From Candidatus Curtissbacteria bacterium RIFCSPLOWO2_02_41_11 (GTDB taxonomy: Bacteria; Patescibacteriota; Microgenomatia; Curtissbacterales; GWA2-41-24), in assembly GCA_001775055.1 (NCBI GenBank), contig MFBU01000014.1:120535-184534 (forward strand): a stretch of 64,000 nt of DNA, written 5' to 3'. Position 1 is the first letter of the stretch; each line of letters begins with the position of its first letter. The translations under genes were made by a program, and so were the position numbers. Below are positions 2,753 through 51,076 of this stretch, piece by piece. The notes under the pieces are model-generated. The model saw nothing but the letters and a program-made list of their open reading frames with translations, made no database searches and had not been told where the DNA came from.

Positions 2753-3683
2753 AACTACATTAGCAATCGAGCTTGCCCAAAAATACAATGGAGAATTAAT
2801 TTCTGCTGATTCGAGACAAGTCTATCGTGGTCTTGATATCGGAACAGGGAAGGTAAGTTTCACCTCAAAAATCGGAAAACATCAAGGCTTTTGGATAGTA
2901 GATGATGTAAAAATCCACGGTTTTGACTTAGTCAATCCCGGCCAAAGATTTTCTGTAGCAGATTTTCTTACATTCGCTAATAGTTCAATAGTTCAAACTA
3001 TTAAACTAAATAAGTTGCCAATTATTGTTGGTGGAACGGGGTTTTATATTAAAGCCCTAATTAATGGGATTGGCTCAATTGGTATTCCTTTAAATCCAAA
3101 ACTTCGTCAACAACTTGAAAAATTATCAACTACCGATCTTTATCAAAAACTTCTCGAAATTAATCCAAAACGCGCTCAATCGATGAATGACTCGGACAGA
3201 AAAAATCCGAGGCGTTTGATCCGCGCCATCGAAATTGCTACATATAACAAGAAACTAAAAACTAGAAACTTGAAACGAAAGATTATTCACTACCAACTAC
3301 CCACTACCAACTACCAGCTCGTTGGCCTTACTGCTCCCAACTTCTATCTCTACAATCGTTCCGACAAATGGCTCGAAGAACGTCTTTCCCATGGAATGGT
3401 TGATGAAGTCAAAAATCTTCTTGATCAAAAAGTTAAACCCCAGTGGCTTGATGATCTTGGCCTTGAATACCGTTGGCTAACCCGATATTTACTTGGGCAA
3501 ATCACAAAGGAAGAAGCCATCAACCGTCTTAGAGGTGACATCCATTCTTTCATCCGTCGCCAAAAAACCTGGTTTCGGCAATTTCCAAATATTTATCTAT
3601 TTGATATCTCAAAACCAAGTTGGCGCCAAAAGTTAGAAAAAATAGTTAGCCTCTGCTATACTCAAACAAATGTCGCAAGATAA
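2715..3683 (+). CDS. miaA: tRNA dimethylallyltransferase (tRNA isopentenyltransferase)
   Basis: N-terminal P-loop LVIYGPTATGKTTLAIELA followed by ISADSRQVYRGLDIGTGK, the canonical MiaA signature. Length is about 320 aa. The true start is probably the second Met (about 2718-2721). Confidence 0.85.
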   Translation: MMLVIYGPTATGKTTLAIELAQKYNGELISADSRQVYRGLDIGTGKVSFTSKIGKHQGFWIVDDVKIHGFDLVNPGQRFSVADFLTFANSSIVQTIKLNKLPIIVGGTGFYIKALINGIGSIGIPLNPKLRQQLEKLSTTDLYQKLLEINPKRAQSMNDSDRKNPRRLIRAIEIATYNKKLKTRNLKRKIIHYQLPTTNYQLVGLTAPNFYLYNRSDKWLEERLSHGMVDEVKNLLDQKVKPQWLDDLGLEYRWLTRYLLGQITKEEAINRLRGDIHSFIRRQKTWFRQFPNIYLFDISKPSWRQKLEKIVSLCYTQTNVAR

Positions 3684-45860: not shown

Positions 45861-47111
45861 ATGTCACGCGTGGTAGTCAGATATGCTCCGTCTCCAACGG
45901 GCATCCCCCATATCGGTAATATCAGAACCGCCCTTTTTAACTTCTTATTGGCCAAAAATCAAAATGGGCAATTTATCCTGCGGATTGAAGACACCGACCG
46001 CAAAAGATTTATTCCCAAGTCTATTCCCAAAATCAAAGAAAGCCTTCTAGTTTTGGGTTTGAAATGGGATGGAGAGGAAATTTATCAATCAAAAAGGCTT
46101 AATTTATACCAAGAACATCTCGAAATCCTCAAGAAAAAACAACTCACTTATAATAAAGAAGGTGCTTGGTACTTTAAAGTTGAAAAGAGCAAGAAGATCA
46201 GTTGGCAAGATTTACTTCACGGACCAATCAACTTTTCTTCGGATGTAATTGAGGATTTTGTAATTGTTAAATCCGATGGCTTTCCGACTTATCATTTTGC
46301 ATCGGTAGTTGATGATCATGAAATGCAAGTATCCCATGTGATGCGTGGTGACGAATGGATTTCTTCAACCCCCAAGCATTTACTCCTCTATCAAGCCTTT
46401 TCTTGGAATCCGCCTAAATTTATCCACTTGCCGCCGATTTTAGGCCCTGACAAGAAAAAGCTTTCCAAAAGGCAAGGCGCCCGATCAGTCCTCGAATACA
46501 TCGAAGATGGATATCTGCCGGAAGCTCTTGTTAATTTTCTGGCTCTTTTAGGTTGGTCACCCAAAGGAGACAGAGAGCTTTTTATACTTGATGAGCTCAT
46601 CCGCGAATTTTCCCTCGACCGGCTCAACAAAAACAGTCCGATTTTTAATATTGAGAAACTCAACTGGTTTAACAAAAAATACTTGCAAAAATACACGAGT
46701 GATGAACTTATTAAAAAAATCAGAAATTTTTCAAAATTGGCCAAAACTGTTAATGATCAACATTTGGTCAAAATCAGCCGTTTGGTCTGTGATCGCTTAA
46801 CGACTTTGGCTGATTTTGATTCGATTGCTTCAATTTTTTTCGAAAAAGGCAAAGAAAAACCACCACAGAAATCAAAAATCGAAAATGCCAGAAAAGCCAT
46901 AGAGTCAATCATTACCTGGGACGAGTATTCAATCGGTCAGGTACTGGACGAATGGATCGCAAGTAATCATTTTGAAAGCTCGGATTTTAAAAATACTCTC
47001 CGTCTTTCTGTCTTTGCTGATAATACTCCGCCAATCTACCAAAGCCTAGCAGTTTTATCCAAAGAAGAAGTGATAAATCGAATCGATGATGCCATCAAAA
47101 AAGCAAAATAG
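45861..47111 (+). CDS. gltX: glutamyl-tRNA synthetase (short form, 416 aa)
   Basis: VRYAPSPTGIPHIGNIRTA (HIGH region). RIEDTDRKR. KLSKRQG (KMSKS-type). Confidence 0.85.
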   Translation: MSRVVVRYAPSPTGIPHIGNIRTALFNFLLAKNQNGQFILRIEDTDRKRFIPKSIPKIKESLLVLGLKWDGEEIYQSKRLNLYQEHLEILKKKQLTYNKEGAWYFKVEKSKKISWQDLLHGPINFSSDVIEDFVIVKSDGFPTYHFASVVDDHEMQVSHVMRGDEWISSTPKHLLLYQAFSWNPPKFIHLPPILGPDKKKLSKRQGARSVLEYIEDGYLPEALVNFLALLGWSPKGDRELFILDELIREFSLDRLNKNSPIFNIEKLNWFNKKYLQKYTSDELIKKIRNFSKLAKTVNDQHLVKISRLVCDRLTTLADFDSIASIFFEKGKEKPPQKSKIENARKAIESIITWDEYSIGQVLDEWIASNHFESSDFKNTLRLSVFADNTPPIYQSLAVLSKEEVINRIDDAIKKAK

Positions 47112-48963: not shown

Positions 48964-49941
48964 ATGGCAAAAATATTAAGCCTAAAAACAAAAACAAACT
49001 TGGCAGTTACGCCGTTTCCGCCGTTTAATTTTGATACTACTGTTTTTAAACCTTCTCACTATCCAGATTCACTCAAGATATATCAAACAGGAAAGTACTG
49101 GTTCGCTATGAGATATAACAACAGGGTCTATGGAATCAAGATGAAAAACGAGGGGACTGTGGATAATCCAAAAATTATGATTACTATTTTTTCTGAATCT
49201 AAACTCGCAAAAACAGAAGTTGAAAGAGTAATTGACGAACTTAAATTTAGATTTGAATTTAGCCGCAATATTTCAGAGTTTTATAAAAAGTTCAAAAATG
49301 ACAAAATTCTCGTGCCATTTATTAAAAGATGTTATGGAATGCATGGGAGTTGTGCCCAAAGTTTATACGGACTTTTGATGATAGGGATTCTTCTACAAAA
49401 TACAGTAATTAGAAGAAGTGTTCAAATGACAAAAGACATGCTTTTAAAGTATGGAGTCAAAGTTAAGTTTGATAGTAAAGAAGTTTATGAATTTTGGGAA
49501 CCCAGAGACTTAAAAAATGTGCGGGAAGAAGATTTAAGAAAACTAAAAGTCGGGTATAGAGCAAAATTATTTATCAAACTTTCTAAAACGTTTGTTGAAG
49601 AAAAGATTGACGAATTTGAACTTAGACAATTATCTGTTGGGGATGCAAAGGAAAGACTCTTGAGACTGTATGGTGTTGGTCCGGAGACTGTTCGTATTTT
49701 ACTAGTAGAAGCTTTGCATCATTATGAAATTTTTGATCATGTTGCGCCTTGGCAACAAAAAATTCTATCAAGATTACTTTTTAATAAACAATTGGTTCCA
49801 ACCGAAAAAATAATCAAGTACGTTAAAACTCGTTGGGGAAAATGGTCAGCCCTTGCGATACTTTACATTTGGGAAGATATTTTCTGGCAAAGAAAAGAAG
49901 GGAAAAGGATCAATTGGCTCGAGAAAGAAATTAGATTATGA
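48964..49941 (+). CDS. HhH-GPD-superfamily DNA glycosylase-like protein (AlkA/Ogg-like)
   Basis: LRLYGVGPETVRILLVEALHHYEIFDHVAPW resembles the helix-hairpin-helix GVGxKTA motif with a downstream Asp, as in Ogg/AlkA. Confidence 0.4.
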   Translation: MAKILSLKTKTNLAVTPFPPFNFDTTVFKPSHYPDSLKIYQTGKYWFAMRYNNRVYGIKMKNEGTVDNPKIMITIFSESKLAKTEVERVIDELKFRFEFSRNISEFYKKFKNDKILVPFIKRCYGMHGSCAQSLYGLLMIGILLQNTVIRRSVQMTKDMLLKYGVKVKFDSKEVYEFWEPRDLKNVREEDLRKLKVGYRAKLFIKLSKTFVEEKIDEFELRQLSVGDAKERLLRLYGVGPETVRILLVEALHHYEIFDHVAPWQQKILSRLLFNKQLVPTEKIIKYVKTRWGKWSALAILYIWEDIFWQRKEGKRINWLEKEIRL

Positions 49942-49952
49942 ATCTTGTTGGA

Positions 49953-50093
49953 CTATTTTTCCCTGAGGTGTTTGAAAAACTCTACCTGCTTTAATCTCTT
50001 TTTGGCCTCTTCTTTGGTATGATATGGCCCGCCAAGATTGCGGCCCGTCTTTTCCGAAAGCACGAAGTAACCTTCTTTACGTTTGACTATCAT
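49953..50093 (-). CDS. 46-aa basic hypothetical protein (not in ORF track)
   Basis: Minus-strand MIVKRKEGYFVLSEKTGRNLGGPYHTKEEAKKRLKQVEFFKHLREK. Short and unsupported beyond the intact frame. Confidence 0.25.
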   Translation of the reverse strand: MIVKRKEGYFVLSEKTGRNLGGPYHTKEEAKKRLKQVEFFKHLREK

Positions 50094-50146
50094 TGGCGAA
50101 ATTATACTACAGTAGATTAGTGAATTTGGTAAAATATGTAATGTTT

Positions 50147-50217
50147 TGCCGGATCGTCTAATGGTAGGACCGCAGACTCTGGATCTGCGTATCTAGGTTC
50201 GAATCCTAGCCTGGCAG
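50147..50217 (+). tRNA. tRNA-Gln (anticodon CUG)
   Basis: Hand-folded. U1 (bacterial tRNA-Gln hallmark), acceptor tgccgga. D-arm gtct/aatggta/ggac. Anticodon arm gcaga-ctCTGga-tctgc (U33, CTG at 34-36). T-arm ctagg-ttcgaat-cctag. 3' acceptor cctggca plus discriminator g. One A7:C66 mismatch. No encoded CCA. Confidence 0.65.
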
Positions 50218-50362
50218 CTGTGGCGATAAGAAAATTTGGCGGGCTTGACTCGCCATAGGCGGGTTGAATGGGACGACGGATTTCCCGCCAATGGCGGGAT
50301 AAACTGGCTTGCCACGTAATTGCGTGGATCCGTTTATCTAGCTTGTCCCGCTCTAAAGCGGG

Positions 50363-50386
50363 GGTTCGAGTCCTAGTCCGGCAGCT
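50363..50386 (+). repeat. duplicated 3' fragment of tRNA-Gln (T-loop plus 3' acceptor strand), candidate att-site remnant
   Basis: ggttcgagtcctagtccggcagct versus ggttcgaatcctagcctggcagct at 50196-50219. The 3' strand tccggca of this copy pairs perfectly with the tRNA 5' acceptor tgccgga. Confidence 0.55.
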
Positions 50387-50464
50387 AAATTTTGGCCACT
50401 TTGTTAGCCTCAAAAATTATCAAAAATAGACAATTTTTGGGATAACCTGGCTTGGATTCGAACT

Positions 50465-51076
50465 TTGGAATTGTATAATTTAATTATGAGTAGTCCGTTT
50501 CCAAACACGCTTTTCCATGCAATTTCTCAATCAAGATTACGAGAGGCGGTAACTAAGCCTACATTGCCTGGTCATTCAAAATTCCACTATGACCCAGAAG
50601 GCAAGATCCCCGGGATTTGGCTAGCAGATGAACTTAAATTTGTAGCATCAGATAATCCTTATGGGAAGGAAGAAACAGGTGAGATACTGGACATCTGGGA
50701 CAAAGATTTTATGCGGGAGGTTACGGGTCGAGATGATGCTGAGGCTTTAGTAATCAAACGCCAAAGGCCCGCAATTGTTCTTCAAGTCGAGGGGTTAGAT
50801 GAGGGCGACTTACTGCAACACCCTTTGTTGCACAATCATTTTTTTTACACAGGAGATATCCCGTGGGAAAAAGTTAAAAAATTTTTAGTTCCCATAAAAG
50901 ATAAGGAAGCTGAAGATACCGCTAGAGAGCTTGCAGAAACCCTCAATAGAAATGCAAGGCGTACTGTCGATGTTGAGACTTATGACCAAATGGCTTTTGA
51001 ACCAACATTCGAGATGAAGAAGGAATTACGAAATGAACTTAATCTTGGAGAAACCGGTAAAGGTAAATTAACATAA
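50465..51076 (+). CDS. hypothetical protein (first gene of right-hand higher-GC region)
   Basis: 203-aa ORF, no motif recognised. Confidence 0.35.
   Translation: MELYNLIMSSPFPNTLFHAISQSRLREAVTKPTLPGHSKFHYDPEGKIPGIWLADELKFVASDNPYGKEETGEILDIWDKDFMREVTGRDDAEALVIKRQRPAIVLQVEGLDEGDLLQHPLLHNHFFYTGDIPWEKVKKFLVPIKDKEAEDTARELAETLNRNARRTVDVETYDQMAFEPTFEMKKELRNELNLGETGKGKLT

Follow-up and report, generated by a model that had tools for sequence, protein, structure and literature searches.

The probable relic of a nuclease- and tRNA-carrying cassette in a tRNA-Gln gene of Candidatus Curtissbacteria

The tRNA-Gln locus, its alleles and its anatomy

The stretch of DNA that was analysed (hereafter the window; 64,000 nucleotides, nt) was taken from Candidatus Curtissbacteria bacterium RIFCSPLOWO2_02_41_11 (contig MFBU01000014.1, positions 120,535 to 184,534) and holds a single tRNA gene according to ARAGORN, a tRNA-Gln(CTG) at 50147-50218 (50147-50217, 49.7 bits, with the Rfam tRNA model). 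The 24 nt at the terminus of this gene (GGTTCGAATCCTAGCCTGGCAGCT, 50196-50219) recur at 50363-50386 with three mismatches, the second copy lying 145 nt beyond the discriminator base at 50217. Further copies were not found in a repeat scan across the 64 kb, and 100 shuffles yielded no match by chance. This repeat (21/24 identical, 145 nt apart) had been pointed out in an earlier, sequence-only reading of the window and was confirmed by the scan and the shuffles. The whole of what is found at the locus is very probably explained by the relic of a cassette, consisting of a GIY-YIG nuclease gene and a spare tRNA, within a resident tRNA-Gln gene.

The 5' acceptor strand of the tRNA (tgccgga) makes 7/7 pairs with the tccggca of the distal copy, and with the cctggca to which it is attached five Watson-Crick pairs, a G5.U68 wobble and an A7:C66 mismatch. 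The perfect distal pairing and the mismatch had been noted before; the wobble is an addition. The similarity extends further in the 5' direction than the 24-mer, as 50325-50344 resembles tRNA positions 50180-50199 (anticodon to T-stem; 80%), with a 22-nt hairpin as an interruption. In addition, the 145-nt interval is rich in G+C (54%, versus 39% for the window) and folds far better than its shuffles (z = -3.9).

The history of the locus became apparent from a comparison of strains, for which contigs were collected that encode exactly the 325-amino-acid (aa) protein found upstream of the tRNA, and eight such places were aligned with the window (9 sequences). Six of the eight (around 20 contigs when near-duplicates are included) carry a short allele, identical to the window across the region. 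The other two, the independent assemblies L019 and L022, carry a long allele with an additional 278 bp and an open reading frame (ORF) of 118 codons for a GIY-YIG protein. The alignment contains this single clean indel of 278 bp and is identical elsewhere. In L019, positions 1-15 of the window tRNA (tgccggatcgtctaa, L019 11184-11198) are followed by the leader c ttgccccgccaaatt and an ATG start codon, by some 82-83 codons of a Slx1/UPF0213-like GIY-YIG nuclease that reads straight into a tRNA, by a complete inner tRNA-Gln (tgccagg tcgtctaatggtagg…) that makes 7/7 pairs with the proximal cctggca, and, as in the window, by the 145 nt and the distal copy. Two self-consistent tRNAs are thus present in the long allele, an inner one (tgccagg/cctggca) and an outer, split one (tgccgga…tccggca), both paired 7/7. 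The inner tRNA of L019 scores 59.1 bits with the Rfam model, against the 49.7 bits of the window chimera, and the two copies of TCGTCTAA within the long allele are exactly 278 bp apart.

The window allele is the product of a 278-bp deletion between the TCGTCTAA copies, which fused the outer 5' strand to the inner body. Both the A7:C66 mismatch and the G5.U68 wobble result from this joining of resident and cassette sequence, as does a score around 9 bits below that of the inner tRNA. The mismatch had earlier been attributed to a slightly different 3' end brought in by the element, an attribution that fails on the perfect pairing of both tRNAs in the long allele. We infer that the long form is ancestral, since insertion into the short allele would need an incoming 5' strand that fortuitously complemented a 3' strand already in place.

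The 145-nt interval was resolved by alignment to eight cassette loci, including L025 and L030. In L030 the inner tRNA is followed by a 13-nt spacer, by TTTGGCGGGG, which is the exact complement of the leader CCCCGCCAAA, and by all that is left of the outer tRNA, from the 3' strand of the D-stem through the anticodon arm and the T-arm to the 3' strand of the acceptor stem. The window locus was thereby divided as follows:

50147-50161 (+): 5' fragment of the resident (outer) tRNA-Gln, positions 1-15, TGCCGGATCGTCTAA; equal to L019 11184-11198 and to the 5' end of uninterrupted tRNA-Gln genes (L150, L111 and others), and now the 5' end of the chimeric tRNA
50154-50161 (+): deletion junction, an 8-nt microhomology TCGTCTAA that the outer fragment has in common with the inner tRNA (9-sequence strain alignment)
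50162-50217 (+): cassette (inner) tRNA-Gln(CTG), positions 16-73, including the proximal cctggca; equal to L019 11477-11532
50218-50229 (+): orphan 3' strand of the inner-tRNA helix, CTGTGGCGATAA; its partner, the last nuclease codons, is deleted (helix conserved in 25 loci)
50230-50268 (+): right terminal inverted repeat (…AAATTTGGCGGG / TTGAA), split by hairpin A and complementary to the L019 leader CTTGCCCCGCCAAAT
50244-50263 (+): solo hairpin A, CTTGACTCGCCATAGGCGGG, inside the right inverted repeat
50269-50282 (+): resident tRNA, comprising a decayed D-loop, D-stem 3' strand TGGGAC, G26, ACGGA and the first loop bases; aligns with the outer tRNA of L025, L030 and others and with the intact tRNA-Gln of L150 and L111
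50283-50303 (+): solo hairpin B in the resident anticodon loop, TCCCGCCAATGGCGGGATAAA; shared with L025, where it occupies the same site (CACGCCTATGGCGTGATAAA)
50304-50307 (+): resident anticodon CTG and G37 (from the reconstruction)
50308-50327 (+): solo hairpin C, the second anticodon-loop insertion, CTTGCCACGTAATTGCGTGG, which begins with the element-end motif CTTG; absent from L025 and the intact relatives
50328-50341 (+): resident A38, anticodon stem TCCGT (pairs with ACGGA at 50276-50280), variable loop TTAT and T-stem CTAG; identical to L150
50342-50363 (+): solo hairpin D in the T-stem, CTTGTCCCGCTCTAAAGCGGGG; L025, L031 and L043 have the same insertion at the same position
50364-50384 (+): resident 3' end, comprising G53, T-loop TTCGAGT, T-stem CCTAG, TCCGGCA and discriminator G; pairs 7/7 with 50147-50153 and corresponds to the distal copy of the sequence-only reading

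Within the window, GC hairpins of the solo type are confined to this locus (2 matches, with 0.11 expected). The possibility of a second, divergent tRNA in the interval had been raised before. In the raw sequence of 50219-50390 neither ARAGORN nor Rfam (E-values up to 10) found a credible tRNA or other known RNA, but when the four hairpins were removed and the 5' fragment was joined, ARAGORN recognized a tRNA-Gln(CTG). A small-RNA gene in the 145-nt spacer was considered as well and rejected, the fold with z = -3.9 being accounted for by the four hairpins and the tRNA stems.

The reconstructed tRNA has uninterrupted relatives. A metagenome scan with the resident-type 3' half lacking hairpin D yielded 75 loci, nearly all of them complete tRNA-Gln genes that start with TGCCGGA. 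In one relative (L150, L109), with a GluRS 68-69% identical to the window GluRS, TGCCGGATCGTCTAATGGTAGGACAACGGATTCTGGATCCGTTTATCTAGGTTCGAGTCCTAGTCCGGCAG is present uninterrupted around 0.9 kb downstream of the GluRS gene, with no nuclease gene. The uninterrupted tRNA-Gln anticipated for related genomes is thus present in L150, L109 and L111. As the reconstructed outer tRNA corresponds almost base for base to that of L150 and L111, the outer gene is the native tRNA-Gln(CTG) of the lineage. The tRNA-Gln is found downstream of GluRS in both the window (GluRS 45861-47111, tRNA 50147) and L150 (3094-4350 and 5229-5300), a linkage that could be meaningful where Gln-tRNA is made via a non-discriminating GluRS.

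Two further observations concern the surroundings of the tRNA. At 50439-50463 a third, degenerate fragment is found, in which GGGATAACCTGGCTTG repeats 50296-50311 (15/16), the junction of hairpin B, anticodon and hairpin C, and continues into an inverted piece resembling a T-arm (CCTGGCTTGGATTCGAAC, 50446-50463) that is complementary to 50197-50214 at 16/18 positions; it may be the debris of an older round of insertion or rearrangement. Furthermore, an antisense ORF of 98 codons (50117-50413, reverse strand) spans the tRNA and the hairpin region. This ORF is almost certainly spurious and could mislead gene callers.

The cassette and its nuclease in other genomes

At least 149 homologues of the ORF were recovered at 50-70% identity, nearly all 110-140 aa long. 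Their tail, 'AAGSSNGRT-xDxGSx-YLGSNPSPAAL', results from a tRNA-Gln being translated in frame, and in it SSNGRT represents the D-arm and GSNP the T-loop. The six variable residues of the tail display paired changes that compensate each other within the stems, and the middle codons provide CTG or TTG anticodons exclusively. In a survey of reference genomes, limited to one genome per species, 211 relatives were identified, and the best 80 were examined for tRNAs. We found that 45 of these best 80 were followed by a tRNA on the same strand at 233-287 nt (mode 245) after the ORF start, where less than one would be expected by chance. Nine isotypes were represented: Gln (25), Pro (7), Glu (4), Ala (4) and Asn, Tyr, Trp, Lys and Met (1 each). 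The reference genome with the closest cassette is a metagenome-assembled genome (MAG) of Candidatus Curtissbacteria, within the Patescibacteria, and the range of the cassette extends to Bacteroidota and other phyla. Synteny between the flanks of the window and those of the cassette loci L025-L055 was not found within 3 kb on either side, hence the cassette occurs in different neighbourhoods. Within a reference contig (L033, ~3297-3320) the inner tRNA-Gln contains a run of N; assembly or masking evidently has difficulty with nested repeats of this kind, and cassettes may therefore be under-represented in MAGs.

The arrangement seen in L019 is shared by the Gln loci, where the outer 5' fragment, the leader, the trailer and the outer remainder all recur. 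In 11 loci the acceptor stems of the inner and outer tRNA differ, and there the average number of Watson-Crick pairs was 6.9/7 for the inner tRNA and 6.1/7 for the outer (7/7 in seven), versus 5.0-5.5 for the cross combinations. The nested design was also encountered for tRNA-Tyr (L064), tRNA-Trp (L079), tRNA-Asn (L063) and tRNA-Glu (L077). In L047 the outer tRNA-Gln (~690-760) is otherwise intact and has an anticodon loop CTTTAGA with the anticodon TTA, which would read UAA; it is formally a suppressor-type tRNA, and the anticodon probably reflects decay or an excision footprint. In the Chitinophagaceae (L056 2534-3316 and L061 2893-3316) a normal tRNA-Pro(GGG) heads a tandem array of one or two units, each consisting of a GIY-YIG ORF and a tRNA-Pro. 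In the tRNA-Pro of these units the D-arm GCGCAGCCCGGTAGCGC is replaced by a hairpin CCCCGCC-NNNN-GGCGGGG, the gene still being recognized as a tRNA by ARAGORN, and each unit closes with a terminator-like hairpin.

The cassette has ends that are complementary to each other. Over 17 loci the leader and trailer matched at 10.2 of 11 positions, with compensatory variants in L025, L032, L035 and L036. Like transposons and miniature inverted-repeat transposable elements (MITEs), the cassettes thus possess terminal inverted repeats, and solo joined ends are present too; a transposase and a consistent target-site duplication were not found in them, the sole ORF being that of the GIY-YIG nuclease. At the insertion sites in the D-loop and the anticodon loop a TG appears to have been replaced, and the sequences do not fit a reading of the insertion ends as target-site duplications. 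A second conserved structure surrounds the inner tRNA, where the 14 nt on either side (on the 5' side, the last nuclease codons) pair and lengthen the acceptor stem to 21 bp. Over 25 loci 94.5% of the cells in this helix were paired and 18 of the 21 pairs showed changes on both sides, whereas slid registers gave 38-50% and none of 500 shuffles scored as high. The helix could act as RNA, by serving as a processing stem or by occluding the start region, or else as DNA, in a cruciform or cloverleaf.

The nuclease shows invariant catalytic residues (Y6, Y16, R27 and E63) and an H31 that is conserved in at least 90%, and the GIY-YIG domain (PF01541) was detected in the homologues. AlphaFold predicts residues 1-83 confidently and the tRNA-encoded tail as disordered (predicted local distance difference test score below 50). 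As the fold ends at residue 83, the C-terminal DNA-binding domain with linker that characterizes the Seg type is missing. In phmmer searches the protein matched 1zg2 (E = 8.7e-4) and 1ywl (E = 2.7e-3), and the top matches in Foldseek were 1zg2, 6seh, 7cq2, 1ywl and 4xm5. By sequence and fold the nuclease is nearest to the UPF0213 proteins 1zg2/1ywl and to the Slx1 domain, and not to I-TevI, UvrC or Seg. The match to a homing-endonuclease family of PHROG was weak (E = 1e-4), and NCBIfam yielded no family for it.

In the public gene calls (P0001-P0120; L019 11217-11573) the last ~35 residues represent the translated tRNA and inverted repeat, ending in ...FGGVK, and the TAG stop codon of these ORFs is supplied by the D-stem of the outer tRNA. 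Some of the homologues were called with a start 'AGSSNLPRQ', which stems from translation of the leader and the 5' tRNA fragment before it. Selection on the tail was considered unconvincing: 14 of 30 homologues lacked a stop codon as far as the end of the right repeat, with 33% expected, and the tail is predicted to be disordered.

History of the locus and rival explanations

On the basis of the long allele and its relatives, the following course of events can be proposed, of which the part that concerns the anatomy and history of the locus appears highly probable. In the ancestral state, which the sister strains have kept, the D-loop of the resident tRNA-Gln(CTG) is interrupted after TCGTCTAA by the cassette. 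The cassette opens with the left inverted repeat CTTGCCCCGCCAAAT and the ORF of the 83-residue nuclease, continues with the spare tRNA-Gln and closes, after a short spacer, with the right inverted repeat ATTTGGCGGGGTGAAG. The spare tRNA begins in the last codons of the ORF and is enclosed by the 21-bp helix, and the remainder of the resident tRNA comes after the right repeat. By taking over the function of the tRNA gene that the cassette destroys, the spare tRNA would remove the fitness cost of the insertion. In the window allele the deletion between the TCGTCTAA copies then took out the leader and the nuclease gene, while the dead 3' part of the resident gene was kept, together with four small GC hairpins that share the ends of the cassette.

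For the mode of spread we put the chances of nuclease-driven homing at about even. The nuclease would cut the DNA of the tRNA gene or the palindromic repeat, probably recognizing structure rather than a long sequence, and the break would be repaired from a cassette-bearing copy through the flanking tRNA homology. Such repair would account for the fact that each cassette resides in a tRNA of its own isotype. Because the cassette ends stand joined in them, the solo hairpins may be joined-end footprints or miniature derivatives of the cassette.

Several points weigh against this account. The D-loop sequence of the inner tRNA equals that of the resident target, so that simple sequence-specific homing would cut the rescue copy as well, and the nuclease has no DNA-binding domain. 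Among the strain contigs of this species an allele with an intact resident tRNA was not seen. Moreover, conservation of the outer tRNA and of its hairpins between the window and L025 exceeds what would be expected of a pseudogene that died long ago, so that some function or co-transfer is conceivable. Finally, a number of loci are arranged differently: L044, L050 and L051 carry a solo hairpin within the D-loop, with the ORF located further inward, the cassette of L034 lies upstream of a whole tRNA, and the tRNA-Pro arrays of the Chitinophagaceae deviate as described. A single insertion mechanism may not cover all loci.

The sequence-only reading had proposed integrase-mediated insertion into the 3' end of the tRNA-Gln, with the 24-mers as left and right attachment (att) sites around an island now decayed, or else as att sites used in tandem, the island then lying on the right. 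The better pairing of the distal copy with the 5' acceptor strand agrees with this model, as does the occurrence of isolated tRNA-Gln 3' ends at the ends of some viral contigs (6 of 16 matches), which indicates that tRNA-Gln serves as an att site elsewhere. The model is nevertheless already contradicted, and its probability is close to nil. Pfam detected no integrase or recombinase domain in ORFs of at least 80 aa between 39413 and 63925, no third copy of the 24-mer exists within the 64 kb and no compositional (GC) break was seen in the window. In the sister strains the insert is the GIY-YIG/tRNA cassette, which displaced a 5' tRNA fragment too, an outcome foreign to integrase-mediated insertion at a 3' end. 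The 145 nt consist of the right inverted repeat of the cassette, resident tRNA positions 17-52 and the hairpins, and represent neither the remains of an island nor a sign of tandem att use, whereas in a tRNA-targeted island the repeats are confined to the 3' part of the tRNA with element DNA in between. Around 25 other genomes have the same architecture, none of them with an integrase-type layout. What stands of the earlier proposal is that an element provided a new 3' end, namely that of the cassette tRNA, and displaced the original one; the proposal erred in the agent and in the anatomy.

Nor is there support for an island to the right, since the right-flank genes are common to all eight strain contigs. 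The right flank comprises unannotated ORFs and genes for a radical SAM protein, a cytidylyltransferase-like protein and NAD synthase, and the left flank encodes a CCA-adding enzyme, RecJ, AspRS, a D-Ala-D-Ala carboxypeptidase, GluRS, a PIG-L-family protein, CysRS and an HhH-GPD protein. These flanks are typical of a small bacterial chromosome. A scan of 49900-50520 for sigma-70 promoters and terminators gave no match. As for a viral attP, of the 16 viral matches 10 were complete tRNA-Gln genes within tRNA arrays of phages and the other 6 isolated fragments in unrelated contigs; none of the 16 could be tied to this lineage. The viral contigs L001, L007, L008, L011, L012 and L016 carry a 22-mer of the tRNA-Gln 3' end without a complete tRNA, several at contig ends, and these isolated 22-mers fit att sites of proviruses at tRNA-Gln in other organisms.

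Tandem tRNA duplicates are common, and in some loci (L030, L055) the inner and outer copy are the same, so that an ordinary tandem duplication of tRNA-Gln with decay of one copy, and with the GIY-YIG ORF as an unrelated passenger, might be envisaged. We regard this as very improbable, since the copies are nested rather than tandem and since the ORF-tRNA junction, the inverted repeats and the 21-bp helix have been kept over dozens of genomes and nine isotypes. In many loci the acceptor stems of the two copies differ by several compensated changes, which argues that the inner copy is not a local duplicate. Equally slight is the probability that the outer tRNA still works and that the cassette and hairpins are excised from the RNA, in an intron-like or RNase III-type manner, the nuclease then being an intron-encoded homing enzyme. 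The location of the insertions in loops or junctions of the cloverleaf, closed by helices, would suit such excision, as would the good conservation of the outer tRNA and hairpins between the window and L025 and the richness of Patescibacteria in tRNA introns (PMC13011429). Rfam scans with an E-value threshold of the window region and of L019, L030, L025, L055, L064 and L079 identified tRNAs only, so that the cassettes lack a group I/II ribozyme detectable by Rfam, and the geometry of a bulge-helix-bulge intron is absent, the sequences not fitting that reading. We know of no tRNA splicing endonuclease in bacteria. Furthermore, the insertion cost the D-loop its G18, truncations or mutations are frequent among the outer copies (L038, L040 and L053; L047 with its TTA anticodon), and a complete spare tRNA is always supplied, which would be needless if splicing worked.

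Relation to known systems and implications

The nearest documented system is that of SegB in the phages T4 and T6, a free-standing GIY-YIG homing endonuclease encoded within a tRNA gene cluster, which targets an 11-bp TpsiC motif within a 27-bp site of tRNA-gene DNA, spreads its own gene and the neighbouring tRNA genes, and promotes the duplication and amplification of tRNA segments; homologues of SegB are enriched within 1 kb of tRNAs in phage genomes, with no preference for an isotype (PMC2330249, PMC13096335). In both cases the gene of a GIY-YIG nuclease is physically coupled to tRNA genes. However, SegB is a two-domain phage enzyme of the homing-endonuclease/UvrC lineage whose gene lies between tRNA genes, whereas the cassette is found on a bacterial chromosome and encodes an 83-residue Slx1/UPF0213-like domain, in an ORF that runs into the tRNA, with inverted repeats and nesting in a tRNA of the same isotype.

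Integrative elements, too, insert into tRNA genes, whose 3' end they rebuild from a copy that they carry. They resemble the cassette in that a tRNA gene is broken, a replacement is supplied and the original end is displaced as a duplicate. The cassette differs from them in that it supplies an entire tRNA, interrupts the gene in the D-loop and displaces the 5' fragment too, and in that no recombinase was found. A functional parallel may be drawn with synthetic 'cleave and rescue' elements, which are engineered and combine a nuclease against an essential gene with a working copy recoded to resist cleavage; by analogy, the cassette would package its nuclease with a replacement for the gene that is hit.

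The best match to the nuclease in sequence and fold is provided by UPF0213 (BH0048 = 1zg2, EF2693 = 1ywl) and Slx1, with which it shares a minimal single domain. Slx1 cuts branched and stem-loop DNA, which fits an element that is built of hairpins and cloverleaf-forming DNA. To our knowledge, the stand-alone Slx1-like GIY-YIG proteins of bacteria have had no role assigned since the structural genomics structures of 2005. The 2006 survey of the GIY-YIG superfamily placed the minimal bacterial proteins in an Slx1 cluster, reported no linkage to tRNA genes and described a bacterial Slx1-like domain fused to a TrmH-like tRNA G18 2'-O-methyltransferase (PMC1564403). Considering that the Gln cassette is located at D-loop position 17/18, this G18 fusion may be a coincidence that hints at recognition of the D-loop.

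Within the same phylum, mobile insertions inside tRNA genes have been described before. These group I introns of Patescibacteria occupy the anticodon loop of tRNA-Asn and tRNA-Asp, are self-splicing and encode, where they encode any, endonucleases of the HNH family; the cassette was not described in that 2026 survey of tRNA introns (PMC13011429). In contrast to these introns the cassette has no ribozyme recognizable by Rfam and carries a spare tRNA. In the full-text literature we found no description of its arrangement, most subscription journals being outside the coverage, and the cassettes have apparently not been described so far. It is quite conceivable, at odds slightly below even, that they form an undescribed class of bacterial selfish elements, which would be characterized by a minimal and probably structure-specific Slx1-like GIY-YIG nuclease joined head to tail with a helix-held spare tRNA, palindromic GC-rich ends, invasion of a tRNA of the own isotype, a natural form of cleave and rescue, and miniature hairpin derivatives shed into the loops of the dead gene. 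The chance is substantial that the family merits a place as a selfish-element class of its own.

For the window, the label of an integration scar can be replaced by a precise history. The odd acceptor mismatch is explained in what may be the working tRNA-Gln(CTG) of the cell, and the structured, GC-rich 145 nt represent a shattered tRNA and not a new RNA gene. In practical terms, gene callers add 35 spurious residues derived from the tRNA to the nuclease, and tRNA finders miss the disrupted copies. The tight and widespread coupling to tRNA genes gives the bacterial Slx1-like GIY-YIG proteins a role that can be tested. If the cassette moves by cutting and replacing tRNA genes, this would constitute a third way in which a selfish element can reside inside an essential gene, beside introns/inteins and the gene ends borne by integrase-type elements, and if true, it would be a driver of tRNA gene turnover and of the horizontal replacement of tRNAs in reduced genomes.

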